A stretch of DNA of 64,000 nt. Source: Centroscyllium fabricii (lineage: Eukaryota). Shown here in pieces: positions 1,784-60,363 of this stretch. Made by a program: the position numbers and the translations under genes. How positions within the stretch are numbered: position 1 is the stretch's first letter; each line of letters begins with the position of its first letter. The DNA lies in the NCBI GenBank assembly GCA_051313645.2, contig JBNRSN020000002.1, forward strand, positions 41,850,001-41,914,000, given 5' to 3'. The notes below the pieces were generated by a model, which saw nothing but the letters and a program-made list of their open reading frames with translations, did no database searches and was not told where the DNA came from.

Positions 1784-2054
1784 TGTGGTAAACCATATAT
1801 CACTGTATATAACGAATCACCTTGTAATACCTTGTAATACCTGTAATACCCTGTAATACCTGTAAGGGATCCCAGGAACATACCTGGCGCCGCCCATGAC
1901 TCCTCCCCCGCTGGAGGAGGTATATAAGCGACTGCTCCCATCCCCCATGCCATTCTGGGGACAGTCAGCTCAGTTGTGTATTGCTAACGTAGTTAATAAA
2001 AGCCTGATTATTATAACCAACTATTCGACTCCGAAGACGTTATTGACGGTTACA
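1784..2054 (+). repeat. 5' LTR of Gypsy A
   Basis: TGTGGTAAAC start, TATATAA near 1921, AATAAA 1995-2000, TTACA end; matches 7165-7435. Confidence 0.95.
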
Positions 2055-2747
2055 ATTTTATTAACTACTGGAAATGGATACTACAATGTTGAAACCATCA
2101 GTGTTCGAAGTTGACCCCTGATCGCCTGGAGCATCAAACGCTTTCTCACACTGGCGAAATGTACTTGAAGGATACGTTAGAGCCAACGCAGCGGTCATAC
2201 TGACCGAAGAGCAAAAACGACGACTCCTCCACGCCCGGGTGGGCCCGCAAGTATATTCGATGATAGTGGACGCCCCATCATTCCAAGAAGCCCTCAGGAT
2301 CCTCGAGGCGGAATACAATCGGGCACCAAACAGAGTCCACGCGAGACATATACTCGCCACCCGAAAACAACAGAATAACGAGTCAAGTGTGCAGTTCCTA
2401 AGAGCCCTCAGAATCCTGGCACGGGACTGTGACTGCAGAGCGCAAACGGCTCTAGTGCATATGGAGAGTCTCATCAGGGATGCCTATGTAACAGGCCTGA
2501 AATCGGACTATGCTAGGCAAAGACTGCTAGAGCAGAATGGCCAGGACTTACAGGCCACTACAGACTTGGGACACGCGCTAGATAGCGCCTCTACGGATTT
2601 ATCATCCTACTCTAGTAACTATACGGCCCCAGCCCCGCAATCTTGGACAGTACTGGCGCAAAGACCGCCAGAGGAACTTCTCACAGCGGCCCACGCTAAA
2701 GCTAAATGCTACTTCTGTGGGCAACCACAGCATCCAAGACGCAGCTG

Positions 2748-3742
2748 TGTAACGGTTGGGTGTATTCGGAATGAAGGCGGGGCCCAAATGCAGAGACACT
2801 GAAACGTTTATAAAACTAAACAACTTTATTCCTAAAACCCCTTATAATACCCTAAACATAACAATATATATATAACACATATTCAACACAAGTCTTATAA
2901 ACAGACCGGCACAAACTTCCAAACAGCGAGCAATGAATAGAGGAGTGCTACGCAATCCAGGCGCGCCATTTTCCCCAAGAGTACCAGTCCTGGCATAACT
3001 GTCCACCCAAAGAGAACCGAGCAAGTCCTCCTCAGCGAGCATGACATCTCATTCCACCCCTCTGCATAGAGGATGTGGGAACAGCTATGCTTCCAGATGA
3101 CCAATGTCCAAACCAGGGTTCGGGTGATGAAATGAATGTCCATGTAGTGGAAATGGGTCCGACCTACTTCTTCTGCTCAGACACAGAGACTTAACCCCAT
3201 GGCAATCAGGCAGTAGCGCACCAGATCCACCGGCAGGGGGACTCCCTTACCAAACAGATGAATGTCCATGTCTGAGTTTCCAATAGCAGGGAGCACTGTC
3301 AAGGCGGAGGGAAATGCGTTCCACCCCAATGCCCCTGTTGGGTAACCCAGCCTGAGCACCAGAAATAGCAAAGAACAAGTACCAGCTGAGTCCATCGATC
3401 TGCAACTTCCTTGTTCCTGACGGTGACTCAGCACAGCAGAAAACCACCTCCTTCCAGTGGCCTGAAGAATGAACAATGGATAGCAGTCCAGTCCCATGAC
3501 GCATTACACTGCAATGATCCAGCATCTGTTCTCAGCCAACCTCCTGATTATATCCTAACCCCAGCAAGTACCCTATTGGGTGATAGCCAATAATCCTGAG
3601 GGGATGAGAACAGAGCACAACTACCACACACATAGATAATTGAACAATTAATAACATAACTAGGAACCTATTCCTTGAAACAGCTGTGGAGAAACAGCAA
3701 AAACTGTTTCTTAATATTTAAAGGAACAGGCCCCCCGTGACA
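2748..3742 (-). mobile_element. 995-bp solo LTR-like insertion in gag of Gypsy A
   Basis: Termini TGTAACGG..CCGTGACA, 5-bp TSD AGCTG (2743-2747/3743-3747), minus-strand AATAAA near 2825; no coding motifs. Confidence 0.85.
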
Positions 3743-3979
3743 AGCTGCCCCGCAAAAGAAGCAATCTGCTCCAAGTGCGACAAAAAGGGACACTATGCGA
3801 AGGTTTGCAAAGGCCCAAACGCTAAATCAAGACTGGGCAGCGCTGCATGTGGAACAGGGGAGCAGCAATATCGGGCTCACCCATCCCCCACTCGGCAGCA
3901 CTCGAGGCAGCAACAGCGGCCATCTTGGGCCCAACAACGCAACACATGGCGGCAGCCATCTCGGGGAGCAGATCTGGAG

Positions 3980-4042
3980 GACTACTCTCCGGATCAAGAT
4001 AACTACTCTCCGGACCAAGATAACTACTCTCCGGATCAAGAC
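3980..4042 (+). repeat. 21-bp tandem repeat x3 (NYSPDQD) in gag-PR linker
   Basis: AACTACTCTCCGGAYCAAGAT repeated in frame. Confidence 0.9.
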
Positions 4043-7000
4043 TTTTTGGAGGACCCGGTGCTAGCATCCGTGAGCCTAGACCAGAGGAAAATCCAGCCAC
4101 TGGAGAGGTCGATGATGCCGGTGGAAGTTAACGGTGAAGAGGTGATGTGCCTGTTCGACAGTGGGAGCACAGTAAGTTTTGTTCACCAGAATACTGTTAA
4201 GCGCCTCTCCCTTAAAGTAATCCCTGCGCGCCAGAGAATATCTATGGCGTCCAAGTCAGAATCCGCTGACGTCACCGGGCGCTGTATTGTAACTCTTAAT
4301 GTACAGGGCGCAATGTTCAATGATTTTAGTTTTTACGTGCTGCCGCAGCTCTGCGCCCCCCTACTTCTGGGACTGGATTTCCAGTGCCATCTTCGGAGCG
4401 TTACAATGGCATTCGGTGGACCCCTTCCCCCTCTCACAGTCACAAACCGCGGCTCAAAGCGGCACCCCCAGTACACTACCTGTGGTCTCTCAACCCTTAA
4501 GGTTGCCCCTCCATCCCTCTTTGCCAATCTCACCCCAGACTGTAAGCCCGTCGCCACCAAGAGTAGGCGCTACAGTGCTGGGGCCATGGCATTTATAAAA
4601 TCCGAGGTGCAGCGCCTCCTAAAAGAAGGAGTCATAGAGGCCAGTAATAGCCCCTGGAGAGCACAGGTAGTCGTGGTGAAAACCGGGGAGAAGAATAGGA
4701 TGGTAGTGGATTACAGCCAGACCATAAACCGGTTCACCCAATTAGATGCCTACCCCCTTCCCCGGATAGCGGACATGGTGAACCAAATCGCCCAGTTTAA
4801 AGTGTTCTCGACCATTGACCTTAAATCTGCTTATCACCAGCTCCCCATCCGCTCAGAGGACCGTCTCTATACTGCCTTTGAGGCTGACGGCCGCCTCTAC
4901 CACTTCCTTAGGGTTCCGTTTGGAGTCACGAACGGGGTCTCGATCTTCCAAAGGGAGATGGACCGAATGGTTGATCGGTACAGGCTGCGAGCGACCTTCC
5001 CGTACCTTGATAACGTGACCATCTGCGGCCATGACCAGCAGGACCATAACACCAATCTCCAAAAATTTCTCCACACGGCCAAAGCCCTGAATTTAACGTA
5101 TAATAAGGAGAAATGTGTGTTTAGCACCACCCGCCTCGCCATCCTCGGCAACGTGGTGGAGAATGGAGTCATCGGTCCAGACCCGGACCGCATGCGCCCC
5201 CTCATGGAGCTTCCCCTCCCCCACTCCCCCAAATCTCTTAAACGGATTTTGGGATTCTTTGCCTATTACGCCCAGTGGGTCCCCAATTACGCGGACAAAG
5301 CTCGCCCACTATTAAAATCAACCTCTTTCCCACTTTCTGCAGAAGCCAACTCGGCATTCTGCAGAATTAAAAATGACATAGCCAAAGCCACAATGCACGC
5401 TGTGGATGAGTCCGTCCCATTCCAAGTGGAAAGTGATGCATCGGACTTTGCCCTGGCCGCCACCCTTAATCAGGCGGGCAGACCCGTGGCCTTCTTTTCA
5501 CGTACCCTCCAAGGCCCAGAAACCCGCCATTCCTCAATTGAAAAGGAGGCCCAGGCCATTGTTGAAGCAGTGCGGCACTGGAAGCACTACCTGGCCAGCA
5601 AGCGTTTTACCCTGTTGACTGACCAACGCTCAGTCGCCTTTATGTTCAACAACAAAGAGCGGGGTAAGATCAAGAACGACAAGATATTAAGGTGGAGAAT
5701 TGAACTCTCTGCGTTCAATTATGATATCTTGTACCGGCCCGGGATATTTAACGAACCCCCAGACGCACAGGCTGACAGTCTCCAAACCCTTCACAATGAC
5801 CTCTGCCACCCGGGGGTCACCAGGTTGGTTCACTTTGTGAAGTCCCGCAACCTCCCCTACTCCATCGAAGAGGTCAAGACCATGACCAGCAACTGCCAGG
5901 TCTGCGCGGAGTGCAAGCCGCACTTCTACCGGCCAGACCGGGCGCACTTAATCAAGGCCACTCGCCCCTTTGAACGACTCAGCGTCGATTTTAAAGGGCC
6001 CCTTCCCTCAGCCAACAGGAACGTCTATTTCCTCAATGTTATGGATGAGTACTCCCGTTTCCCCTTCGCCATACCCTGCCAGGACATGACCTCAGCCACC
6101 GTCATCAAAGCCCTCAGTAGCATCTTCTCCCTGTTCGGGTACCCTAACTATATCCATAGTGACCGGGGGGCCTCTTTTATGAGTGACGAGCTGCGTCAGT
6201 TTCTGCTAACAAAAGGCATCGTGACCAGCAGGACTACCAGCTACAACCCCCGGGGGAACGGGCAGGTAGAGAGAGAGAACGCCACGGTCTGGAAAGCCAT
6301 CCAGTTAGCCCTAAAGTCCAAAGACCTCCCAGTCACCCGATGGCAGGACGTTCTCCCTGAAGCCCTCCACTCTATCCGGTCCCTACTGTGTACTGCCACT
6401 AATGCCACCCCTCACGAAAGACTTTTTGCCTTCCCCAGGAAGTCAGCTTCCGGGACCTCGCTACCATCGTGGCTGTTATCTCCGGGACCGGTCCTGCTGC
6501 GGAAGCATGTGAGGGGACACAAGGCAGATCCCCTAGTCGAACGGGTCCACCTCCTGCACGCCAATCCCCAGTACGCTTACATAGCATACCCCGACGGGAG
6601 GGAGGACACCGTGTCCATAAAGGACCTAGCCCCAGCAGGAGTCCCCAAAACCAGCCCCGCCAGGCAGCCCGAGCTCCCCAAACGTCCTGTGAAGCTCCCC
6701 GCGCCACCGAGGCCGAAGTACACGCCCCGACACGTGGGCCCAGTACCCCAGTATGTCCACAAGGCACCTGCGAGCAGCACGACCCGGCCCCAAGCCTGGA
6801 TCCACAACGCGCGCCCCCTAGAGTCAGAGGACGAAGGAGAGAACGTGGCCCTTGCTGTCAGAATAAGGGCATCACCGCCACCCAGAAGTGATATAACCAC
6901 CACCAGTCGACCGGCAGCAAGGGAACAACCGACACAACCAGCCACTCCACGACAACGAACACCACAGGCACCACCGGCACCACCAGCGGTGCGAAGATCA

Positions 7001-7164
7001 GCGCGGATGACGAAACCGCCTGACAGACTGAATTTATAGTCAAAAGAACTCTGATTGTATATATTGTGTTAATGAGCACCTTGTAATTATTAGTTTTTTT
7101 TCACCTCGTTGTACTTCCGTGTTTTGTTCACCCCGCTGTACTTTTGTTTTAAAGAAGGGGTGAA

Positions 7165-7435
7165 TGTGATAAACCATATATCACTGTATATAACGAATCA
7201 CCTTGTAATACCTTGTAATACCTGTAATACCCTGTAATACCTGTAAGGGATCCCAGGAACATACCTGGCGCCGCCCATGACTCCTCCCTCGCTGGAGGAG
7301 GTATATAAGCGACTGCTCCCATCCCCCATGCCATTCTGGGGACAGTCAGCTCAGTTGTGTATTGCTAACGTAGTTAATAAAAGCCTGATTATTATAACCA
7401 ACTATTCGACTCCGAAGACATTATTGACGGTTACA
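7165..7435 (+). repeat. 3' LTR of Gypsy A
   Basis: Direct repeat of 1784-2054 preceded by PPT. Confidence 0.95.
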
Positions 7436-8029
7436 GGCAGAATGTTCCCAATGTTGGGGAAGTCCAGAACCAGGGGGCACAGACTAAGGATAAGGGGTAA
7501 GCCATTTAGGACCGAGATGAGGAGAAACTTCTTCACCCAGAGAGTGGTGAACCTGTGGAATTCTCTACCACAGAGAGTTGATGAGGCCAGTTCACTAAAT
7601 ATATTCAAAAGGGAGTTCGATGTAATACTTACAACGAGGGGGGATCAAGGGATATGGTGAGAAAGCAGGAACGGGGTACTGAGGTAGCATGTTCAGCCAT
7701 GAACCTGTTGAATGGCGGTGCAGGCTCGAAGGGCTGAATGGTCTACTCCTGCACCTATTTTCTATGTTTCTATGTTTCTATATACATGCAAACTATCGTT
7801 GTTGTTTAATAGGCTGCTTCCGGGCATGCCTCCTCTTCTGGCTGTGGAGTGGGGTTTCCATCTTGGCAGGTGAGGTGGCCCAACTCATCTTTATGCGATG
7901 GCTGTTTGAAACTTTCCTTTATTGAGAAAATCTAAGTAAAATGTCAAAGCCAGTGGCGCAGGATGTTGCCATGGCTGAGAGCAGAAGGAGACATGGTAAA
8001 CCGAGGGGCAGGGATCAGATGATGCCACC

Positions 8030-12692: not shown

Positions 12693-15028
12693 TGATGTAT
12701 CGTCAATTAAAACGCAAAGACGAGTAGTTACCTAAACTACAGGCTTTTATTACCTAACAATGGAGCTGGCCTCCTGATGAGTTCAAAGCGAAGAATGAGT
12801 GGGGGCAGGGCAGCCCTCACCTATATGCTCCGACCTGAGGGGAGGAGTTAGGGGTGTGGCTGACCTGGCCTACAATACAATACCAGATGAGCCATCAACT
12901 ATTTACAGTGGTATTTACACGATTACCACATTCACCCCTTCTTTAAAAACAAGTCCGGCGGGGTGAACGTGCCTTCTGGTAAAAAAATAATTCTAAATGT
13001 CCATTAGCAATTAGCATTGCGTTATTAGTCTCTCCGGCGGTCGCGTCGGCCTGGAGGACCGCCGGGGTGCCGGCAATGGTGGTGCCAGTTGCAGGGCCGG
13101 GATCGAGCTACTGACGGTGAGTGGGGCCAGTGTTCCACCGAAATCCACCATCACGCTCTTCAGGTGACACTGGAAATCCAGTCCCAGTAAGACTGGGGCG
13201 CACAGCTGCTGGAGTACGTACAACTTAAAGTTGCGGTAAATGCGGTCCCTGATCGTGAGCGTGATGCTGCAGTAGCCGGTGGCGTCCACCGTGTGGGACT
13301 TTGAGGCAAGGGAGACTTGGTAGTGCGTGGGCTGGGACTGCAGTGTGTAGCGCCGCACTGTGTCGGGATGTATGAAGCTCTCTGTGCTACCGGTGTCGAA
13401 CAGGCAGCTAGTGGCGTGCCCGTCCACCTTAATCCCCATCATGGAGTTGGACAAGGTTTGCGGCCTAGCCTGATCGACGGTGGCTGAGGCCGAAGTGTAT
13501 GTGTGTGAGTGGGGGCCCTCCGCTATCTGGGGCCCCGGCCGGGGCAGTTGGCAAGATGGCCGCTCAGAAGATGGCGGCGCTGGCGATGCGCACGTGTCCG
13601 GCTGCTGTGGACAAGATGGCGCCGCCCGTGGTTCGCACGCGGCCGACTGCAGTGGACAAGATGGCGGCGCCCGTGGTTCGCACGCGGCCGACCGCTGTGG
13701 ATAAGATGGCGGCGCCCATGGTTCGCACATGGCCGACCGCTGTGGATAAGATGGCGGCGCCCGTGGTTGGCACGCGGCCGACCGCGGTGGACAAGTTGGT
13801 GGCGCCGGGGGTCGCACATGGCCGGTCGCGGTCACGTTTGAAGTGGCAGCGCCTGTGCCGCGCGCGCGGCCGTCCTCCGCCGTACAGTTAAAGGGGATTG
13901 AGGCGCCCACGATTTACCCCCGGCTGACCGCTGCTGGGTCACGCTGCAACACCGTACCTGGAGACATGGAGTGGCATCGCTGTTCACGCAGGCTGCGCTG
14001 TTGGGTCTGGAGGTGGAGGCTGGGCTGGATTTGCACACCTTCGCGTAGTGCCCATTCTTCTCGCACCGCGCGCAGGTCGCATTCTTCGCGGGGCAATGCA
14101 CCTTCGGGTGCTTTCCTTGGCCGCAGAAGTAGCATCTGTGCCCCGCCAGTGTCTTCGCAGTCGCCGCTGCCATCGTGGGGGTCTCGGCCTGTCGCTGTGT
14201 CGCCCAGGGGTCAGGGGTACATTGGGAGCCATGATCTCCGTACGCCTCCAGCTTTCGAAGCGCTCAGTCCACCACATTAGAAAGCGTTACCGCGGACTCA
14301 AGCGACAGTGTGTCCTGCTCCAGCAGCCGCTGGCGGGCCTGGCTGTACCTGAGTCCAGCCACATAGGCATCGCGGATTAGGAGGTTCGCCTCTTCCTCCG
14401 CTGTCCTTGCCTGGCAGTCGCAGGCCCGTGCGAGGGCTTGGAGCGCTAGTAGAAACAGTTCATTTGACTCACCGAGTCGTCTTCTGGTCGCCAGAACATG
14501 CCTGGCATAGACCGAGTGGGCCGGGCGCATGTAGCAGTCCTTTAATTTCGTGGCCGCTTCCTCGTAAGTCTTGAGGCCGCGGATAAAAAGTACACCCGGC
14601 CGCTGATCCGTGATGAGAATACCTGGAGTTTGTCCTCATCACTTGCAGCCTTTACGGCCTTTATGTAGGCCTCGACCAGGCCAAATCAGTGTTCAAAGTC
14701 GTTAGCAGCATCGGGTGCCTGAGGATTTATGTCGAGGCGATCCGGTTTCACTGCGTTATTCTCCATGTTTTAAAATTTAGTTAAGAAAATTGACATATCG
14801 TCAATTAAAACGCAAAGACAAGTATTTACCTAAACTACAGGCTTTTATTAACTAACAATGGAGCTGGTCTCCTGATGAGTTCAAGGCGAAGAATGAGCGG
14901 GGGCAGGGCAGCCCTCACCTATGTGCTCCGACCTGAGGGGAGGAGTTAGGAGTGTGGCTGACCTGGCCTACAATACAATACCAGATGAGCCATCAACTAT
15001 TTACAATGGTATTTACACGATTACCACA
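12693..15028 (-). mobile_element. Gypsy B, internally deleted (gag + protease only)
   Basis: 238-bp LTRs 14791-15028 (5') and 12693-12930 (3'), TSD GATAC, PPT 12931-12944, gag ATG 14766, knuckles CYFCGQGKHPKVHC, LFDTGS; jumps from post-protease to the integrase tail RRSSRPTRPPERL. Confidence 0.95.
13550..13830 (-). repeat. 45-bp minisatellite (SAACEPRAPPSYPQR-like) in gag-PR linker of Gypsy B
   Basis: About 5 units of CTGTGGAYAAGATGGCGGCGCCCGTGGTTCGCACGCGGCCGACCG on the plus strand. Confidence 0.9.
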
Positions 15029-16225: not shown

Positions 16226-18965
16226 TGTGGTAAACCTGTGTTATACCACTGTCATGGTACCGTAATGTACCTGTAACTACCTTGCTGTTAACACTGTACA
16301 TATCTGTAAATATGCTGAAGGTCGACCCCCCCCTCACTGTTCGCCAATCTCAGCCCCAACTGCAAACCCATTGCGACCAAGAGTCGGCGATGCAGTGCGG
16401 GGGACCGGGCGTTTATCAGGACGGAGGTCGAGCGCCTGTTAGGGGAGGGGATCATCGAGGCCAGTACCAGCCCTTGGAGAGCCCAAGTCATGGTGATTAA
16501 GTCGGGTGAAAAACTGCGCATGGTCATAGACTATAGCCAGACCATTAACCGCTACACTGGGCTCGACGCGTACCCACTTCCCTGCATCACGGACATGGTC
16601 AATCAGATCGGCCAGTACAAGGTCTTCTCCACCATTGACCTTAAGTCGGCATACCACCAGCTACCCATCCGGGCTGCGGATCACCGGTACACCGCCTTCG
16701 AGGCGAATGGGCGACTCGACCACTTCCTCTGGGTTCCCTTCGGTGTTACCAACGGAGTGTCAGGCTTCCAGTGGGAGATGGACCGAATGGTTGACCAGAA
16801 TAAGTTGCAGGCCACCTTCCCCTATTTAGACAATGTCACTGATGTAATAATGGAGTCTGATACATCAATAACTTAATCCACTACATTATCACTATGTACA
16901 AAGATGGGTTTTACCATGCTTCCAGGTGAAGCGTTCCCCCATACTGAGCAGTTCCAGTATTTATACTAACAGAAAACAGGAAGTGACATGTACAGAGTTC
17001 ACCCCTTAGCCTTCCCCTGGAAGTCTGTTCAATATTACCACAGTCACCATCTGCGGCCATGATCAGCAGGACCATGATGCCAACCTTGCCAAATTCCGCC
17101 GCACGGCCCGGCGTCTGAACCTCACGTACAATGAGGACAAATGTACCTTTAGTACTAACCGTCTCGCCATCCTCGGTTACGTGGTAGGAAACGGGGTCCT
17201 TGGCCCCGATCCCCAACGTATGCGCCCCCTGCAGGAGCTGCCCCAACCCCACAATCTCAAAGCCTTGAAAAGATGCCTGGGGTTTTTCTCCTATTACGCT
17301 CATTGGGTGCCCCAGTACGCGGATAAGGCCCGGGCTCTCCTCAAGGCTGCCGTCTTCCCACTCCTGGTAGAAGCCCAAGCGGCCTTCATCTGGATTAAGG
17401 AAGATATCATCAAGGCTACCATGCACGCCGTTGATGAGTCCATTCCCTTCCAGGTCGAGAGCGACACAGTGCCCAGCTCAACAGGCTGCAGGCCATCCAT
17501 GATAGCCTCCGAAACCCGGGAGTCACCAGACTCGCACACTTTGTCAAGTGCCGCAACCTCCCCTACTCCATTACGGAGATCAAGGCCATGACCAAAGAGT
17601 GCCCTGTCTGTGCTGAGTACAAACCCCAATTTTACAGGCCAGACAAGGCACACCTCATCAAGGCCACCAGCCCCTTCGAGCACCTGAGCGTGGACTTCAA
17701 AGCTCCCCTCCCTTCCACTGACCGCAACTCGTACTTCCTCACGGTCATTGATGAGTTCTCCCGCTTCCCCTTTGCCTTCCCCTGCCCATACATGACGAGC
17801 ACGATGGTGATCAAACACTTCACCACACTCTTCGCGATCTACGGCCTCCCCAGTTACATCCACAGCGACCGGGGGTCGTCGTTCATAAGCGACGAACTGC
17901 GTCAGTTTCTGCTCCAGCAGATGATTGCCTCGAGCAGAACCACCAGTTACAACCCCTGGGGGAATGGCCAGGTAGAGAGAGAGAATGGGACGATCTGGAA
18001 GGCGGTCATCCTGGCCCTTAAATCGAGGGGCCTTCCAGTCTCCCATTGGCAAGAGGGCCTCCCCATGGTGCTACACTCCATTCGTTCTCTCCTGTGCACC
18101 ACAACTAACGCCACACCTCATGAACGATTGTTTTCATTCCCCAGGAGATCGACTTCGGGGACAGTGCTCCCGCCGTGGCTGACCACCCCGGGGCCAGTTT
18201 TACTCGGAAACACGTCCGCGGCCACAAGACGGACCCCCTGGTGGAACGGGTGCAGCTGCTCCATGCCAACCCGCAGTACGCATATGTGGCATACCCGGAT
18301 GGGCGTGAGGACACGGTCTCGATAAGGGACCTGGTGCCTGCCGGGATCACGGACACCGAACCCCCGGCCGAGCCCCAGCTCTGCCAACCGGCACTCACTG
18401 GCCTATGGCCTATACAAACACAACACACACTGGGGCCCTCAACGCCTATACACACACGACACACCGGGGCCCTCGACATCGTCAGCTGACGACTGGGGGA
18501 CTGACACCACGCCGCCAGCACCCGTGGCTGACAACACACCACCGACTCCGCTGCCGGAACCATCGAAACCAGCACCCCATCGGTCCCTCCGACAGGCGAA
18601 ACCACCGGAGAGACTGATCACGAAATGTTGACGGCAGACACTGACATGCATTCACCCCGCCGGACTCATTCTACAGAAGGGGTGAATATGGTAAACCTGT
18701 GTTATACCACTGTCATGGTAGCATAATGTACCTGTAACTCCCTTGCTGTTAACGCTGTACATATCTGTAAATACCTGATTGCAGGAGCCTGCCTCGACTG
18801 ACCCCGCCTCTGACTCCTCCTCTGGGTCTAGGTATATAGGTGGCTGCTTACCATCCCCCGGTCAGTACTGCCCTGAGCTCAGCCGAGACATGCTCCATTC
18901 TTTAGTGAATAAAAGCCTTTAGTTAAGGTAACTCTTCGTCTTTTAGTCTTATTGACGATACGTCA
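16226..18965 (+). mobile_element. Gypsy D, multiply deleted
   Basis: TSD CCCTG; 5' LTR remnant 16226-16312 joined directly to pre-RT sequence (LKVDPP); RT and integrase with frameshifts; most of RNase H deleted near 17466; 3' LTR 18687-18965 after PPT. Confidence 0.93.
16840..17042 (-). mobile_element. 203-bp solo LTR inserted just after the YLDN motif of Gypsy D
   Basis: TSD GTCAC 16835-16839/17043-17047; minus strand TGTGGTAAT..ATTACATCA with TATAAATA. Confidence 0.85.
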
Positions 18966-28331: not shown

Positions 28332-30715
28332 ATTATGTTTTATGACTTATATCATTTATTACTTAAATTATAAAAATACTTTTGAGATTACAGCTTTATT
28401 TCTGAAACTTTCGCTAATACTACGACATACTTAAACTCAAAGAAAGGATGTCAAAATACAAGTTCGCCCAGGGCGCCATGTTCCCTAAGGCCAGCCCTGC
28501 CTAACAAGAACTCGCCGTTTGTTTAATGACTAACCATAACTATTGTGGCCCAAGATGACATACTTGCAATGGAAGTTTAGAGCCAACTTAACCCACGATG
28601 ACAGGCTCGCTAATCAGGTAGCTGAGCTCAGCTTTTGTCCTGTGGCCCTTTTAAAATTCCGCCCGGAAAAGCAGAGCGTTAAGTGTACCGCTTTCGTTTG
28701 AACTCCTGTTTCTGCCGGGCAGTGGGACTTCAAATTCTCCCCTCCGCTCTGCCAATTTTTCAATAGTTTGGTTTGGAGATTCTTCAACACAGTGATAGCC
28801 ACAGACCCGGCCGAGCAAAAACAAAACCCGTCTCCTGAGAGAAGAGGTCACTGTTCACCTACATTGACGAGGGTACAGTAATGCACTGCTCAGGTGCGGC
28901 ACTCATTGTTGCCAGGACTCCCACCGATTTATTGCATTGGTTTTCATAGCTTGTCATAGCCGCAATCCAATAGCACTTTATTTCACTGTGTTAAACAAAG
29001 ATAAGCAGGAACGCATTAGTCACATTAGAACCATATATTATATCAAGCACCGTGTATATACAATACTTTTTCTTGGATTAGCTCAGTGATAGATGGCAAT
29101 GCCGAAACAGAAGCTGTCAGGGCTCCTGACACAGGCATCTTTTTTGGGCAATACAGCACACTGAAAGTTTTACACGGGCATCAGTCTCAATGCAATATAG
29201 AGGCTGCAGAAGCAGCCCAGAAACCACTGGCATTCTGACGAAAGGTCATCGACCAGAAACGTTAACCCTGTTTCTCTCTCCACCAAAGCTGCCTGTCCTG
29301 CTGAGTTTTACGGCATTTTCTGTTGTTATTTCAGCATTCTGTTTTGCTTCATTTAAGAATTATACCTTAACCGGCTATCAAACCTTTTTTTTAAATTCAT
29401 TTATGGGTTGTGTGCATCGCTGGCAAGGCCAGCATTCATTGCCCATCGCTAGTTGCCCTCGAGATGGTGGCGGTGAGCCGCCTGTAAGGGGTGGTGTTTG
29501 TGGTTCTCAGCTTTGCCTCTGACTTATGAGTGGTTCGAATCGCTCCCACTCCCTTTGGTTCTAGACCTGGGGCTTATTTGGGGGCAGTAATGAAAACTGA
29601 GTTGGTGAAAAAACTTTGATTTTTACTTTGAGAAAATATAATTACACAACACAATAATCTTATCACTCTAAAATTGGGGGAACACTTTGGAAATATGCGA
29701 AGGAGAATAACAATAGACACAATACTTCCCCCTTCCAATCCCACTTCACTAACTAAGTTGAGCTCCAAAGGACCAGGGATAATGCTCACCAAAATGACTT
29801 CCTTTGACAGTTGTAGAGGTTCGCGATTTTGGGGTTCTCTAAATGTGGCAGTTGGGGCCTGCCGTACCCCGGACGTGGTAGAGGACTTCACCTGCATTGC
29901 TGTTCAGTCTCCGCGTGTCCGCTGATGCGGTCAGGTGCGTATTGGATCTATCGGGTAAGTACCCAATTTTTTGTGGTCAGAAGTAGGGTTTCGAGTCTTT
30001 TCATTCAAATCTTACCTAGGGGGGTAAGTCAGAATAGATTGTAGAGTGGAACAAACTTGCGAATCTTCGGTTTCTTTCAAGTTGGTTTCTTGTTGGTCGC
30101 TGTGGCCCAATATTACCCAGTTGCTGGTAATATTTTGGTTGTTTGTTTTTATGGGGCCCTTGGTTGCTGCGAGGTGTCCGATGTCTTCTTCTGGCCCTCC
30201 ACTTACAGTGCTTTCGTGACTTCACGTGACTGAGCCCACTTGATGTGGATTTTGAAGTCACCGTTGTTACTGCTCGAATTCCTTTCAACTTGATTTTTTC
30301 TTCTTCACCGAGCCGTGCTGAACCTGAACCTTGAACTGAGTTGACTGTTGATCTCTCACTGTTGTAAAAACAGGTCCTCAATTATACCTGTGGTAACCGT
30401 TATATGTACTTGTATTACCACCCCAATATTGTTACCAATATTACATGTATGTATAGCGGCCGGGTGCATGATGTAACTGCCCTGTATTCCGACACTGTCG
30501 CGGGGTCAGGTCAGCCACACCTCTAACTCCTCCCCTCAGGTGAGTGCCTTATAGGTGGGGACTGACCGGCCCCCATTCATTCTGTACCTGATGTTCGATC
30601 GGAGCGTAGCTCCGTTGTAAGCTAATAAAAGCCTATAGTTAAGGTAACTACGCGTCTTTAGTTTTATTAGACTATTGACGATACGTCAATTTTATTAGCT
30701 TAGAAAAATTCTAAA

Positions 30716-33700
30716 ATGGAGAGCGGCGCTGTAAAACCCGAAAAGCTGGACATTAGTCCACAGGACCCAGCCGCCACCAACACCTTCGAACACTGGTTCG
30801 GTCTCCTGGAGGCCTACATGAACGCCGCCAAGGCTACAACCGAAGAGAACAAGCTACACGTTCTCCGGTCCAGGATCTCCAGCTGGGTATTCTTCTTCAT
30901 CCGTGATGCCACAACGTACCCCGATGCGGTGGCTAAACTGAGGAAATGCTACGAGCGCCCGGTCCACTCAGTCTATGCCAGGCATGTGCTCACGAACAGA
31001 CCACAACTACCGAGTGAGTCAAATGAGCAGTTCGAGCAGGCACTCCAAGCCCTTGTCCGGGTCTGCGGCTGCCAACCACGGACGGCAGAAGAGGAGGCGA
31101 ACCTCCTCGTCCGGGACGCCTATGTAACGGGACTCAGGTCCGCAGAAGCTCGCCAGCGGCTGCTGGAAAAAGACACTTTAACTCTGGAGGAGGCGATCTC
31201 TATCGCCAACGCTGCTGAGGGCGCACGCCGCAAGCTGCAGGCGTACGGCGGCCCAAACCCACAGGCCGTCTACGACGCGTGGGCAGCCCCACAACGGGTC
31301 GAGACCCCCACAATGGCAGCGGCAGCTGTGAAGACGCCGGCGGAGAAGAAATGCTAATTCTGCGGCCAGGGACTACACCCACGGGCGAGATGCCCAGCGA
31401 AGACCGCGACCTGCGAGAGGTGCTCAAAGAAAGGACACTACGCCAAGGCCTGCAGATCAGCCCCGGCGTCCAGCTACAGGTACAACAGCGCGGCCTGCGA
31501 AAGCTCCAACACCAGCCCTTAGCCTCAGGTAAGCTGCAACTGCAGCGCGACCCAGCGACGGTCCGGGGGTAGAGTACAAGCGCCCCCGTCTCCCACCCGG
31601 ATGCGGCAGAGGCCGGCTGCACCCACGGCATGCCAAACTCAGCCACGGCCGGCCATGCGCGAACCCCCAACGCTGGCATCCCGCCCAGCGCGGCTCGCTG
31701 CGTGCGAATCACGGGCACCGCCAACCCAGCCGCCGCGGCCCGCTGCGTGCGAACCACGGGCACCGCCAACCCAGCCACCGCGGCCCGCTGTGTGTGAACC
31801 ACGGGCACCGCCACCGCGTCTACAGCTGCCCGCCGCGTGCGAACCACGGGCACTGCCATCTTGTCCGCTGCGGCCCGCCATGTGCGACCCCCGGCGCCGC
31901 CATCTTGTCTTCAGCGGCCAGCCACGTGCGACTCTCCGGTGCCGCCATCTTGTGTACGGCCCCGACCAGCGGAGGGCTCCCACACACACACACACACACT
32001 TCGGCCTTAGCCATCCCGAAAGTCGATCATGCTAGGCCGCACACCCTATCAAATTCCATGATGGGGATTAAAGTCAATGGCCATGCCACTAACTGCCTGT
32101 TCGACACTGGAAGCACATAGAGCTTCATTCACCCCGATACAGCGAAACGCTACGGACTGCAGATCCTGCCCACGCGCTACCAGGTCTCCCTTGCTTCACA
32201 GTCCCACACCGCAGACGTCACCGGCTACTGCTCGGTCACATTCACAGTTAAGGGCTGCGTGTACCGTAATTTTAAATTGTACATAGTCAAGCAGTTGTGC
32301 TCCCCAGTCTTACTGGGTCTGGATTTCCAGTGCCACCTTAAGAGTTTGACAATGGAGTTCGGCGGGACCCTGTCCCCCCTCACCATCAGTAGCCGGGAAA
32401 ATCTCTTCCCAAAGCGGAGCCCGGCCTGCGGCCTCTCCACCCTGAAAGTCGACCCCCCCTCACTGTTCGCCAACCTCGACCCCAACTGCAAGCCCATTGC
32501 TACTAAGAGTCGGCGGTACAGTGCGGGGGATCGGACGTTTATCAGGTCGGAGGTCGGGCGTATGCTGAAGGAGGGGATAATTGAAGCCAGCACCAGCCCC
32601 TGGCGGGCCCAGGTTGTAGTGGTTAAGACTGGCGAGAAACATCGGATGGTTATCGATTACAGCCAGACCATTAACCGCTACACCGGGCTTGATGCCTACC
32701 CCCTCCCCCGCATCTCGGAAATGGTTAACCAGATCGCCCAATACAAGGTGTTCTCCACAATCGACCTTAAGTCGGCGTATCACCAACTCCCGATCCGGAA
32801 AGCCGACCGCCCGTACACCGCCTTCGAGGCGAACGGTCGGCTCTACCACTTCCTCCGGGTCCCCTTCGGCGTGACCAACGGGGTGTCGGTATTCCAGAGA
32901 GAGATGGACCGCATGGTTGACCAGAATGGGTTGCAGGCCACCTTCCCCTACCTGGACAACGTGACCATCTGCGGCCATGACCAGCAGGACCACGATGCAA
33001 ATCTGGCCAAATTCCTCGACACGGCGAAACGGCTAGATCTCACATACAACAAAGACAAATGTGTCTTTAGTACAGATCGGCTCGCCATCCTCGGATACGT
33101 GGTGGAAAACGGGGTCCTCGGCCCCGACCCACAGCGTATGCGCCCCTTACAGGAACTGCCCCTTCCTCACAACCCTAAAGCCCTGAAGAGATGTCTGGGA
33201 TTTTTCTCTTATCACGCGCAATGGGTTCCCCAGTTCGCGGATCAGGCCAGACCGCTCCTTAAGGCTGCCGCCTTCCCCCTCTCGGTAGAAGCCCAAACGG
33301 CATTCGCCCGGATCAAGGAAGACATTATCAAGGCGACCATGCACGCCGTTGATGAATCCATCCCTTTCCAGGTGGAGAGTGACGCTTCGGACTTTGCCCT
33401 TGCCGCCACCCTGAATCAGGCAGGCAGGCCCGTAGCATTTTTCTCCCACACCTTACAGGGACCCGAGATTCGACACTCTGCAGTGGAAAAGGAGGCCCAG
33501 GCCATCGTGGAGGCCGTGCGCTACTGGCGTCATTACCTGGCCGGTAAGCGTTTTACACAGCTCACCGACCAACGGTCGGTCGCGTTTATGTTTAACAATA
33601 AACAAAAGGGTAAAATCAAGAATGATAAGATCCTGCGGTGGCGGATCGAGCTCTCGACTTACGAGTATGACATTCTTTACCGACCAGGCAAACTCAATGA

Positions 33701-34984
33701 ACCCCCGGACGCACTGTCCAGGGGAACGTGCGCCAGTGCCCAGCTAGACCGGCTGAAGGAACTCCACGATCGCCTCTGCCACCCGGGTGTCACCAGACTT
33801 GCCCACTTCGTAAAATCCCGTAGCCTCCCCTACTCCATCACAGAGATCAAGGCTATGACCCGAGAGTGCCCTGTTTGCGTCGAGTGTAAACCCCAATTTT
33901 TCAGGCCAGACACGGCGCACCTCATTAAGGCCACCCGCCCCTTTGAACGTCTAAGCGTGGACTTCAAAGGCCCCCTCCCCACCACCGACCGCAACTCGTA
34001 CTTCCTCACAGTCGTAGACGAGTTCTCCCGCTTCCCCTTCGCCTTCCCCTGCCCAGATATGACGAGCGCAACGGTGATCAAACACTTCACCACGCTGTTC
34101 GCTATTTTTGGTCTCCCCAGCTACAGCCATAGCGACCGGGGGGGCGTCGTTCATGAGCGACGAACTGCGTCAGTTTCTGCTTCAGAAAGGGGTTGCCTCA
34201 AGCAGAACGACCAGTTACAACCCCCGGGGGAACGGCCAGGTAGAAAGGGAGAACGGGATCGTCTGGAAGGTGGTCAGCCTGGCTCTGAAGTCCAGAGGCA
34301 TTCCAGTGTCCCGTTGGCAGGCAGTCCTCCCTGATGCGCTGCACTCGATACACTCTCTGTTGTGTACGGCCACCAACGCCACACCTCACGATTTAATCTT
34401 TTCCTTCCCCAGGAAGTCGACTTCGGGGACAGCCCTTCCACCGTGGCTCACGATGCTGGGGCCGGTCTTGCTTAGGAAGCACGTCCGCGGCCATAAGACC
34501 CACCCCCTGGTAGACAAGGTGCAGCTGCTGCACGCCAACCCACAGTACGCGTACGTACAGTTCCCGGACGGGCGCGAGGACACTGTCTCCATCAGGGACC
34601 TAGCGCCCGCCAGGAGCACCACAGCAGAGCCCCTGGTCGGGCAGCAGCCCGCCCAGCCACTATATTTCGGCCACCTCCAGCCACTACATATCGACCACTG
34701 GCCGATACACGACCCACAACCCACCAGAGGCTGGCCGCCACTACCGTATGGTTCGGAGCCCCCGCCATTGCCAGCTGAGGCCAAGACTCGGATGACCAGC
34801 TGCAGGCACAGCAGCAACCGCAGGGCTCGGACCCACCGCCACCACCAGCACCTACAGTACCGGCACCAGCGCCGCCGCCACCACCACCGGCTCCAACGCC
34901 GCCAATGCTGCAGGAACCAGAACATTTGACAGAGACCCGGCGGTCCTCCAGACAGACGCGACCGCCGGATAAGCTAATCATGAA
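30716..34984 (+). pseudogene. gag-pol of Gypsy C, disrupted
   Basis: ATG 30716; stops at 31355 and 32118, frameshifts near the (CA)n run 31981-31999 and the G-run near 34140; RT-RH-IN open 32259-34140. Confidence 0.92.
31650..31960 (+). repeat. 45-bp minisatellite (AACEPRAPPTQPPRP) in gag-PR linker of Gypsy C
   Basis: CGCTGCGTGCGAACCACGGGCACCGCCAACCCAGCCGCCGCGGCC units. Confidence 0.85.
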
Positions 34985-36214
34985 CTGCTCTGTCCATTCA
35001 CCCCGCTGGACATGATTTTCAAAGAAGGGGTGAATGTGGTAACCGTTATATGTACTCGTATTACCACCTTAATATTGTTACCAATATTACATGTATGTAT
35101 AGCGGCCGGGTGCATGATGTAACTGCCCTGTATTCCGACACTGTCGCGGGGTCAGGTCAGCCACACCTCTAACTCCTCCCCTCAGGTGAGTGCCTTATAG
35201 GTGGGGAATGACCGGCCCCCATTCATTCTGTACCTGATGTTCGATCGGAGCGTAGCTCCGTTGTAAGCTAATAAAAGCCTATAGTTAAGGTAACTACGCG
35301 TCTTTAGTTTTATTAGACTATTGACTATACGTCAATACCGTTTGAGGCCTGCTAATCTGCCCGCCAAATCAGCTGTCTCTTTGTTACTTTTGGTGGGCTC
35401 GTTAATAATGATGGGTTTGAAATTGTTTAATAGATTTCGGGATTCTCCTATTTTAAGATGGTCCCATTAATTCTTAAATGGTCTAAACGATTGTTTAGCC
35501 TTTTGTTTGATCACACTGAAATTTGTCTTTTCCTGTTGGGCCTTTGTTGGTTGGTGGCATGTTCTGCATTATGTATGCTTTGGATGGTTCTGTAATTTTG
35601 GCGGGAACTGCTCTTCCGTTGGCCTTTTGTCATTATGTAAAACAACTGAGACAGTCCAGATCGTTCCCAGACAGCTTCGCTTATGCCAATTTCCAAACTG
35701 GCCGTTTACAGAGGCCCATCCCAATTCCTTTGTTTGCAGCCTTTTTCCTCCCACAGGCTCGAACATGCTTTTTAAAATAGTCAAAAATCCTGGGGTTTTG
35801 ACTTTAAACCCCCTTTTCGGCCCAATATTCTGATACCTTTGTGACATGGGTTTTTAAACAGTTCATAAATCTCTTCTTTATGGTAATCTTCTTGGTTTTT
35901 GGGATCTGCAGAATTTTGCGAGTCCTACATGCCTTCTTGAATCGCTGCAGTCCGAGTGGAGAAGGTACTCCCATAGTGCTGTTAGGGAGGGAGTTCCAGG
36001 ATTTTGACCCAGCAACGATGAAGGAACGGCGATATTTCTAAATCAGGATGGTGTGTGACTTGGAGGGAAACTTGCAGGCGGCGAAGTTCCCATGCACCTG
36101 CTGGCCTTGTCCTTCTAGGTGGGAGAGGTCACGGGTTTGGGAGGTGCTGCCGAAGAAGCCTTGGCGAGTTGCTGCAGTGCATCTTGTAGATAGTACACAC
36201 TGCAGTCACGGTAT

Positions 36215-37761
36215 TGTTTTTTTTTAATTCATTGATGGGATGCGGGCGTCGCTGGCTGGCTAGGCCTGCATTTAGTGCCCATCCCTAATTGCCCTTGAGA
36301 AGATGGTGGTGAGCCGCCTTCTTGAACCGCTGCAGTCTATATGGTGTAGGTACACCCACAATGTTGTTAGGAAGGGAGTTCCAGGATTTTGGCCCAGCGA
36401 CAGTGAAGGAGCGGCGATACAGGTCCAAGTCAGGATGGTGTGTGGCTTGGAGGGGAACTTGTAGGTGGTGCTGTTCCCATGCATCTGCTGCCCTTGTCCT
36501 TCTAAGTGGTAGAGGTCGTGGGTTTGGAAGGTGCTGTTGAAGGAGCTTTAGCGAGTTGCTGCAGTGCATCTTGTAGATGGTACACACTGCAGCCACAGTG
36601 CGCCGGTGGTGGAGGGAGTGAATATTGGAGGTGGTGGATGGAGTGCCAATCAAGCGGCCTGCTTTATCCTGAATGGTGTCGAGTTTCTTGAGTGTTGTTG
36701 GAGCTGCACTCATCCAGGCAAGTGGAGAGTATTCCATCACACTCCTGACTTGTGCCTTGTAGATGGTGGAAAGGCTTTGGGGAGTCAGGAGGTGAGACAC
36801 TCGCCGCAGAATTCCCAGCCTCTGGCCTGCTCTTGTAGCCACAGTATTTATATGGCTGGTCCAGTTCAGTTTCCGATCAATGGTAACCCCCAGGATGTTG
36901 ATAGAGGGGGATTCAGCGATGATAATGCCATTGAATGTCATGGGGAGATGGTTAGAGTCTCATTTGTTGGAGATGGTCATTGCCTGGCACTTGTGTGGTG
37001 TGAATGTTACTTGCCACTTGCCAGCCCAAGTCTGAATGCTGTCCAGGTCTTGCTGCATATGGACACAGACTGTGTCAGTATCCGACGAGTCTCGAATGGT
37101 GCTGAACAGTGTGCAATCATCAGCAAACCTCCCCACTTCTGACCTTATGATGGCGGGAAGGTCATTGATGAAACAGCTGAAGATGGTTGGGCCTAGGACA
37201 CTGCCCTGAGGAACTCCTGCAGTGATGTCCTGTGGTTGAGGTGAATGATCTCCAACAACCACAGCCAACTTCCTTTGTGCTAGGTATGATTCCAACCAAT
37301 GGAGAGTTTTCCCCTTCATTCCCATTGACTTCAGCTTTGCCAGGGCTCCTTGATGCCATACTCGATCAAATGCTGCCTTGATGTCAAGGGCAGTCACTCT
37401 CACCTCACCTCTTGAGTTCAGCTCTTTTGTCCATGTTTGGACAAAGGCTGTAATGAGGTCAGGAGCTGAGTGGCCCTGGTGGAACCCAAACTGGGCGTCA
37501 GTTAGCAGGTTATTGCTGAGTAAGTGCCGCTTGATTGCACTATCGACGACACCTTCCATCACTTTGCTGATGATTGAGAGTAGACTGATGGGACGGTAAT
37601 TGGCCGGGTCGGATTTGTCCTGCTTTTTGTAGACAGGACACACTTGGGCAATTTTCCACATTGCTGGGTAGATGCCAGTGTTGTAGCTGTACTGGAACAG
37701 CTTGGCTAGGGGCGCAGCTATTTCTGGAGCACAAGTCGTCAGTACTATTGCCAGAATGTGC
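36215..37761 (-). mobile_element. LINE (second CR1/L2-group family), RT and 3' end
   Basis: [39 protein letters not shown]; TSD CGGTAT 36209-36214/37762-37767; poly(A)-like end. Confidence 0.92.
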
Positions 37762-38169
37762 CGGTATGCCGGTGGTGAAGGGAGTGAATGTTTAAGGTGA
37801 TGGATGGCGTGCCAATCAAGCGGGCCGCTTTGTCCTGGATGGTGTCAAGCTTCTTGAGTGTTGTTACTAGTGGATCTGTTTTTATTCAAAATGTGGTGGC
37901 AGCCTAGGAATTACAGTGGCAATGTTGACAGACGAATTTAGGTTTAGACTTTCCTCCCCCATTTCCAGGTAGATCCGGGCCTGCTCACGAGAGCAGGGTA
38001 AAATTGAGGAAAATTGGATGGAAAGGCGTAGCACGCCTGTATGCCGTATAGTTTATACACCTACAAAGAACCCCTTCTTATTACCTTAGAGTAGGGAGAA
38101 GAAAGTGATCAAAGGCAGTCAAGGCTCTGATTGAGAAGAACCTTTTGCCAGTTGTCAAACATGCGGGAA

Positions 38170-58659: not shown

Positions 58660-58946
58660 GTGAGCAATGTGGAGAGACTGAGGAAACTGGAATTATTCTC
58701 TTTAGAGGTGAGAAGGTTAAGGGGAGATTTAATAGAGGTGTTCAAAATGATGAGGGGTTGTGATAGGGTAAATAGGGAGAAAGTTCTTCTACTGGCAGGA
58801 GGGTCAGTAACCAGAGGACACAGATTTAAGATCATTGGCAACAAAGCCATGGGGAGATGAGGTTTTTTATTTTACACAGAGAGCTGTTATGACCTGGAAA
58901 GCATTGCCTGGAGGCAGACTCAATAGTAATTTTCAAAAGGGAGTTG
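58660..58946 (+). mobile_element. CR1 fragment
   Basis: LFSLEVRRLRGDLIEVFK..TRGHRFK. Confidence 0.8.
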
Positions 58947-59896
58947 TGTGGCGGGTCGCCACCTAAACGGGCGAATCCGCTCTGACGTCCACGGACGCTT
59001 CACCAGGCAACGCGCCTGCAAGACTCTGCTCGCACAGAGTTCGGCTGCCGATGCGCTGATGTCATCACGCAGCCGGGCTGGTATACGCGCTGACGTCATC
59101 GCGCAGCTGTACCCGCTTACAGGCTCACTCGGTACCGCGATGCCATTAAAGTAAGTACTGTTTAAACTCACTCGGTCTCGGCCTCTACTTGTGTCCGTCA
59201 GCAGCCTCAACACTGGTGACCCCGACGCTTGGAATGAATTCCGAGCCCTGCAATGGCGGACACAAACGCAGTTCCGGTCAAACTGCCTGAGTTCTGGGAA
59301 AACCTGGCCGCAGCCTGGTTCCTCCAAGCCGAGTCCAGATTCAGGATACAGCGCATCAACAGAGATGGCACGATGTATGATTACCTCGTCGCCTCGCTGA
59401 GTAGCTCCACGGTCACGAAGGTCTGGACAACGCTGCAGAACCCACCTGAGCACGGCAAGTACGCACATCTTAAGGCCGCGCTCCTTAAAAGATTCACGGC
59501 CTCCCAATATACATGCAACTGCCAGCTCCTCGACCTCCCAGGCCTCGGTGATGCCTCACCGTCAGACCTGCTCTCCCACATGCTCTCGCTCACGGACGAG
59601 AAGCCACCAGGGTCCCTCTTCCGAGCGTTATTCATCCACCAGCTACCCCCCAGCATCCAGCCTACCATCGTGGTGGCTGACCACACGGACCTAGTGGCGC
59701 TGGTCGACGAGACCGACAAGCTCCTGTCCACCCAAGCCAGCCGCGGCACAATTCCCGACATGGCAGCCGCCGCCACGGCGCGTCCCGCCTCACACTTCAT
59801 GCGGCCACAAGGCCCGGCCATGAAGCCCACGTGGCCGAAGCGACCCTCAAGCCCTCTGAACCCGGGGTACTGCTACTACCACGCACAGTTCGGCAT
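58947..59896 (+). mobile_element. CsRn1-clade Gypsy 5' remnant (LTR, tRNA-Trp PBS, gag)
   Basis: LTR TG..CA 58947-59212, PBS TGGTGACCCCGACG 59214-59227, gag 59253 onward (VKLPEFW..AWFLQAE, LGDASPSDL, CYYHAQFG) truncated by a SINE fragment. Confidence 0.88.
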
Positions 59897-60363
59897 CAGT
59901 GCAGTGTTCCCTCAGTACTGCACTGGAGTGTCAGCCTAGGTTTTTGTGCTCACTTCTCTGGATATGGGTTTTAAATCTCAGTTCAAGCAGGACATTAAAG
60001 TAGCAAACAGTCTGTTACAACCTGAGAGAATGGCTAGGGTAGGCAACAAGAGATAGTGACGAGGGAATGGAGTAAGTTGCAGGGCCACATCTGTACAAAC
60101 ATTTCCAAAACTATTGCTGCTCCAAGGCCCCATGAAGCAGTGTTTCTAAAACATATGACCCCCATTGCCACTGTCTTGTGCCCCACGCACAAATCAGTGC
60201 CCTAACCTGAGTGGTGCAACATTAAAATTGATCCATTGCAACTGCAGCTGTTGGCTCAGACTCCATGGATTTATTTTAGATTATGAACATATCCCCTTAT
60301 TGAGAACTGGACAGGCTGTTTGGGGGGAAGCAGTGGAAAACCACTCAAGCTGAAGGTGGCTGA

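Follow-up and report, generated by a model that had tools for sequence, protein, structure and literature searches.

A Ty3/gypsy retrotransposon lineage of Centroscyllium fabricii with a natural YxDN reverse transcriptase, probably autonomous and recently active

Main finding

The window analysed here, a 64,000-nt stretch of the Centroscyllium fabricii genome, contains LTR elements whose reverse transcriptase (RT) carries Asn in place of the second Asp of the YxDD motif. We read them as members of an autonomous and recently active Ty3/gypsy lineage, which likely has a two-carboxylate polymerase and is likely self-primed, and we put the probability of this reading at roughly 0.8. A wider reading is tentative and the chances are somewhat against it: a whole pan-animal clade would have a two-carboxylate RT in which the third Asp switches freely between Asp (D) and Asn (N), and would use a primer that a cut at the poly(A) hexamer, past the transcript start, releases out of its own RNA, as a second self-priming route independent of Tf1.

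The motif and its elements in the window

The motif was found at the following three sites.

5003..5014, plus strand: YLDN motif of the element A RT, TACCTTGATAAC, translated, with Asn on the second Asp of YxDD
16823..16834, plus strand: YLDN motif of the element D RT, TATTTAGACAAT, translated
32949..32960, plus strand: YLDN motif of the element C RT, TACCTGGACAAC, translated

Translation at these positions bore out the initial annotation, which had reported YLDN in all three pol copies, and the context is FPYLDNVT at each of them. When the element A RT was aligned with the Ty3 RT, the Asn fell opposite the second Asp of the Ty3 YLDD, which is the equivalent of Ty1 D211 and Ty3 D214. In the stretch of 165 codons that has the motif at its end, dN ranges from 0.08 to 0.13 among A, C and D, while dS is either saturated or, for the C-D pair, 0.985 (dN/dS of 0.078/0.985). 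Such low dN relative to dS agrees with the earlier proposal of selection rather than decay. Among the best 120 of 1507 homologs (E<=1e-20), 97 have YxDN and 23 have YxDD. Judged from this proportion and from the C-D ratio, the YLDN in A, C and D is not a chance occurrence.

The elements and their parts are given below.

1784..7435, plus strand: element A, Ty3/gypsy, within a LINE, 5-bp TSD GGCAG
1784..2054, plus strand: element A 5' LTR, 268/271 match to the 3' LTR
1989..2001, plus strand: element A LTR segment with the AATAAA hexamer plus A at its end, exact complement of the PBS and candidate self-primer
2056..2068, plus strand: element A PBS, 13 nt, starting 2 nt past the LTR and without a TGG start
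2748..3742, strand not assigned: TG..CA insertion of 995 bp in the gag of A with a 5-bp TSD, likely the solo LTR of another family
3743..7039, plus strand: element A single frame with the end of gag (zinc knuckle), PR, RT, RNase H and IN
7165..7435, plus strand: element A 3' LTR, with the polypurine tract just before it
12693..15028, minus strand: element B, a member of the same clade with LTRs matching at 227/238, with gag and PR but without RT
16226..18965, plus strand: element D, TSD CCCTG
16840..17042, minus strand: solo-LTR-like insertion of 203 bp in D, TSD GTCAC, 5 nt past the D motif
30389..35334, plus strand: element C, TSD ATACC

The initial annotation had treated A, C and D as copies of one family. 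Since their LTRs are only 56-62% alike (A-C 56%, A-D 62%, C-D 61%) and their synonymous sites are at or near saturation, sequence comparison makes them three separate Ty3/gypsy families. The near-identity claimed for the LTRs of A and C is found within each element (268/271 in A and 295/300 in C) but not between the two.

A, C and D are all broken copies, so that the window alone is no proof of viability, for which the evidence comes from the genome-wide data. Element A has an early gag stop (2119-2121), the 995-bp insertion and, close to the end of RNase H (about 5760-5775), a deletion of 27 nt. In element D the 5' LTR is cut and joined to pol, the 203-bp insertion follows the motif, and RNase H is partly deleted. 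Element C, with its LTRs at 30389-30688 and 35035-35334, has stops in gag and PR and an IN frameshift near 34140.

Some other features of the window were also recorded. CR1-type LINE fragments with FADD motifs are located at 261-1783, 7436-7760, 36285-37844 and other places, and A and B are inserted in LINEs of this kind. The AATAAAAGCC signature of the clade is present in further LTR segments at ~60687 (plus strand) and ~26515 (minus strand), which the B and D families probably left as solo LTRs. The ORF at 58920-59939 contains DUF7041 (PF23055) and probably represents the gag of a different family of LTR elements. Elements B (13523-13812) and C (31663-31960) have tandem repeats (45-nt and related) that lie between the zinc knuckle of gag and the protease, and in element A this site has short DNYSPDQ repeats.

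Classification

By domain content element A belongs to Ty3/gypsy (Metaviridae): Pfam gave PR, RT, RNase H and integrase in the Ty3/gypsy order. The TG..CA LTRs, the polypurine tract and the short TSD are also Ty3/gypsy features, and the best solved-structure sequence match of the RT is Ty3 (E 1.8e-57). The usual YxDD is absent here (YxDN, and D or N clade-wide), but it is not a classifying feature. No chromodomain hit was obtained with Pfam in element A. Membership in Bel/Pao (Belpaoviridae) was rejected; the A integrase has HSDRG..QVEREN with a 35-residue spacing, and there is one gag zinc knuckle.

A search of the viral contig collection gave no relative, and the protein atlas search returned only generic RT/RNase H clusters. 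Cigr-1, a candidate relative, reportedly has short LTRs (about 245 bp) and a single ORF with about 1200 codons; these sizes fit the LTRs of 150-300 bp and the ORFs of about 1170-1350 aa of our clade. No Ciona name appears among the homolog matches listed, and the part of PMC6238403 available to us mentions neither the motif nor the PBS for the Cigr-1 clade of Ty3/gypsy. Identity with Saci2/lennie was considered and not adopted (4-bp TSDs, and nothing on the motif in the available part of the source).

The Asn form in the genome

The motif was counted in the 7.2-Gb genome with a degenerate 35-nt pattern, and the counts cover the elements that match this pattern. YxDS, which like YxDD arises by an A-to-G change, was taken as the neutral control. 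There are 206,811 matches for YxDN, 277 for YxDD and 426 for YxDS; with a narrow pattern for family A, the corresponding counts are 10,232, 1 and 3. As for the density of the clade, 206,811 RT-motif matches amount to about one per 35 kb, and the clade may make up a sizeable share of the genome.

The best 150 genome matches to the A RT are 99-100% identical to it, and YLDN is present in 30/30 close loci that were fetched. Eighteen full-length copies were chosen for long plus-strand frames, and every one of them has a single gag-pol ORF of 1327-1345 aa with YLDN. Their LTR pairs differ by 0-5 bases (two pairs are identical, and three have in addition a 9-10-nt indel), and their TSDs are exact 5-bp repeats in 13 copies, mismatched in 2 and unscored in 3. 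Because Asn is found in ~200,000 copies, young intact ones included, the YxDN RT very likely works. The viable natural YxDN enzyme that the initial annotation had put forward is thus supported by the 18 intact young copies together with the genome-wide counts, and an autonomous Ty3/gypsy lineage replicating naturally with a selected YxDN RT is, on this genomic evidence, very likely.

Distribution of Asp and Asn across the clade

The closest named proteins, with 75-84% identity, are those of catsharks and rays. From 150 representatives at 50% identity, the 104 in-clade rows comprise 54 with DN, 47 with DD and 3 with other residues, while DD is present in 44/44 distant rows; two rows lacked coverage of the motif. 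With an insect member as the query, 118 new rows were obtained, 111 of them with D and 7 with N. In the long-protein search [YF]xDD was found in 113/113 distant Ty3/gypsy proteins, and overall DD is present in 157/157 outgroup matches. Glu was never seen at the second YxDD position in the homolog sets examined. Considering the members that cover the motif, 10/10 clusters are uniform for D or N, and therefore D and N are both family traits. The named hosts with N are sharks, rays, hagfish, an anemone and corals, and those with D are Trichuris, Trichinella and insects. As far as the homologs tell, the trait is the property of a pan-animal clade (sharks, hagfish, corals, nematodes, insects) in which the position is either D or N.

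On the RT-RNase H tree of 122 rows there are 11 D/N changes, 8 of them forced, and the number is still 11 when the motif column is removed. A rooted thinned set with 54 ingroup rows gave 14 changes, 9 of them forced, and the clade is separated from the outgroup with a support of 100 in the rooted trees. The RT-only tree of representatives also has 11 changes on the best tree, of which only 2 are forced by well-supported branches. These trees point to repeated D/N switching within the clade, at least 8-9 times on the RT-RNase H trees and with 2 forced changes on the RT-only tree.

The host pattern raises the possibility that Asn is selected in some hosts and not just tolerated, through a slower or more faithful RT or through marine ion and solute conditions. 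N is found in 10/10 named shark and ray proteins, in hagfish, in an anemone and in three coral-bearing clusters, while D is found in Trichuris, Trichinella and 20/20 named insect proteins (from an insect-centred set); moreover, no D family has expanded among the about 207,000 copies, though only one transition separates the codons. On the other hand, most of the records are unnamed, sister families with D and with N are intermixed in the tree, and hosts and elements are related, which leaves few independent D/N-host events. We consider such selection in some hosts unlikely.

Primer binding site

The PBS starts 2 nt past the LTR and is without TGG. For the PBS survey, 80 metagenome loci were taken, of which 33 had flanking direct repeats; 7 with unclear ends were skipped, and the other 26 were analysed together with A, B and C. 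In 25/29 elements, from about 14 families, the PBS is the exact complement of a segment of the LTR over 11-19 nt, which is a PBS of the Tf1 type, and at most 2 of 1000 shuffles paired as well. Element C, for example, has a 13-nt PBS complementary to its own LTR segment. The pairing is absent in four elements, namely B, where the PBS is one base off the complement of its LTR segment, and three with doubtful LTR ends. The paired LTR segments differ in sequence by family, and nearly all end in (A/T)TAAA followed by GCC or ACC. In A and C a TATA-like box precedes the segment by 68-69 nt, so the segment probably lies inside the transcript. The pairing makes self-priming likely. The primer would come from a cut after the poly(A) hexamer, as made by RNase H in Tf1, irrespective of D or N, and it is possibly the 3' copy of the LTR segment that acts as the primer.

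In the partly available PMC4600332, the self-primed elements Tf1, Tj1 and sushi are described as having a PBS complementary to their own LTR and no tRNA PBS, and the elements here are similar in both respects. When compared to Tf1, however, the paired segment here has the poly(A) hexamer at its end, and its location seems to be about 35-40 nt past the predicted start instead of the RNA 5' end, and no chromodomain hit was found.

Within family A, none of 19 PBS variants has a compensating LTR change (against 3,042 exact matches), so copying of the self-primer into the PBS was not observed. Whole-strand folding gave z-scores of -0.92 for A and -2.80 for C, and only the 13-bp helix is common to both. 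Two further observations concern this region. At position 11 of the family A PBS, 9/14 variants are transversions, compared with 5 variants in all at the neighbouring position, and the site is possibly an RT error hotspot. Also, the gag start codon lies within about 5-15 nt of the PBS (2069-2076, 30703-30720), similarly in several metagenome relatives, and this leaves hardly any space for a leader or a packaging signal.

The pairing of PBS and LTR could instead mask the 5' poly(A) signal without being the primer. The paired segment does end in AATAAA or ATTAAA in most families, and its distance from the TATA-like box means that it is probably not the RNA 5' end as in Tf1. Nevertheless, the elements lack a TGG-type PBS, the pairing begins in every case 2 nt past the LTR end with primer geometry and strict Watson-Crick pairs, and several families have a non-canonical GTTAAA. 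We regard masking as improbable and retain self-priming as the likely function.

Active site and possible compensation

The motif-A Asp, the Tyr, the first YxDD Asp and the D-E-D-D residues of RNase H are invariant or nearly so in both the N and D groups. In the AlphaFold model (pLDDT 83) the RT-RNase H fold is an ordinary one, and it matched the Ty3 RT (TM 0.69), the CaMV RT (TM 0.74) and also the MLV RT.

The two-carboxylate polymerase would work as follows. The motif-A Asp and the first YxDD Asp would hold the metals, and the second YxDD position would need only a side chain of Asp length with a carbonyl oxygen. This length requirement is suggested by the occurrence of D or N but never E, as in engineered Ty1, in which N but not E is functional in vitro. 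The rate loss would be made tolerable by a background that the clade shares as a whole, for which the motif-B Val in place of Pro is one candidate.

The motif-B stretch adjoins the YxDD loop in retroviral structures. Val is found there in 85/101 ingroup rows and Pro in 37/44 outgroup rows; Pro at 406 is present in 37/44 outgroup rows compared with 3/101 ingroup rows. The residue before the Val position is Gly in 47/54 N rows and 24/47 D rows. Going by these alignments, the motif-B Val (NGV or NAV for NAP) is a candidate for the permissive background; the difference correlates with one clade and thus counts as a single event. If a rate loss like that of Ty1 is present, motif B would be one candidate for an offsetting feature. 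The phylogeny-aware covariation scans, of low power with at most 9-10 independent pairs, gave no significant column that tracks D or N.

The initial annotation had cited the Ty1 mutant correctly. In the available part of PMC2148107, D211N keeps its polymerase activity in vitro with a kpol 223-fold lower, its transposition is blocked and is partly rescued by RNase H suppressors, and D211E is dead. Ty3 D214N is active in vitro and lethal for transposition, as given in the part of PMC5371799 available to us. The change in these mutants is at the same position as in our elements, it leaves polymerase activity in vitro, and Ty1 accepts N and not E. The difference is that the mutants do not transpose, whereas the natural elements have amplified and no RNase H change tracks N.

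From the Ty1 case, the initial annotation had proposed that Asn is possibly co-adapted with unusual priming or RNase H use. The partial rescue by RNase H suppressors (PMC2148107, seen in part) speaks for it, as does the self-complementary PBS in all N families with good LTR ends. However, the mapping of YLDN against this PBS, while giving the expected PBS in those N families, also gave it in 3/3 D-bearing elements (L075, L086, L104), two of which are likely family-level, L104 being old with its D possibly due to decay; PBS pairing is thus independent of Asn. The RNase H part of the proposal is not sustained either, as the catalytic residues are identical in the N and D groups and no column tracks Asn at the low power stated. 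The best lead, residue 496 in the thumb region, goes with N in about 5/10 independent pairs, but it is the strongest result out of 1074 tests and does not reach significance, and a lead at residue 323 is at an indel and was not reproduced. Co-adaptation is therefore quite unlikely.

The YxDD matches in the genome

The YxDN copies could still be defective and mobilised in trans by a YxDD element, as all three window copies are broken and 277 DD matches exist, with the frame open across the 3-kb locus in 1/21 of those inspected. Yet the DD matches are outnumbered by the DS control and stand in codon contexts that the N families also have, the N-bearing RT is under strong purifying selection, and young intact copies have N. 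A YLDD master was rejected, as 18/18 full-length copies with near-identical LTRs carry YLDN, and no D-bearing master was found within the 35-nt pattern in the genome, with YxDD (277) below YxDS (426). Mobilisation in trans, the outcome that the initial annotation had named as fatal to its proposal, is very improbable. Equally so is recoding of the Asn codon to Asp by A-to-I RNA editing, conceivable because the codons are a single A-to-G change apart; RNA edited in this way would come back into the genome as DD, which is below background.

Relation to prior reports

A natural YVDN is known from the nematode Bel/Pao elements Cer7-Cer12, for which the part of PMC554778 (2005) available to us leaves open whether activity is retained, and from Atlas, an intact nematode Bel/Pao element (PMC9094657, also seen in part). 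As far as these sources go, the nematode elements are like ours in that the second YxDD position is naturally Asn in LTR elements that are intact. They differ in belonging to the Bel/Pao superfamily, from which an independent origin can be inferred; here there is no env, D/N switching is repeated, and about 207,000 copies are present in one vertebrate genome. In the literature search, which lay outside subscription journals, Repbase and GyDB and saw some sources in part, no report of YxDN in Ty3/gypsy was found, with Bel/Pao as the only precedent, and no description of a PBS pairing with an LTR segment at the poly(A) hexamer. The principle of a natural YxDN is thus already known; for Ty3/gypsy it is apparently unreported, though a prior mention is possible.

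Significance

The second YxDD aspartate is treated as essential, as Asn there blocks Ty1 and Ty3 in cells. The viability of natural YxDN enzymes was left open in PMC554778, as far as its available part goes, and the genomic evidence that they do work is strong, with about 207,000 YxDN copies, young intact ones among them, and no D master. For annotation, YxDN should not be taken as the mark of a dead RT. The natural D and N sister families are matched enzymes for studying the role of the carboxylate in chemistry, processivity, fidelity and pyrophosphate handling, and the self-complementary PBS found clade-wide is a separate lead on priming.
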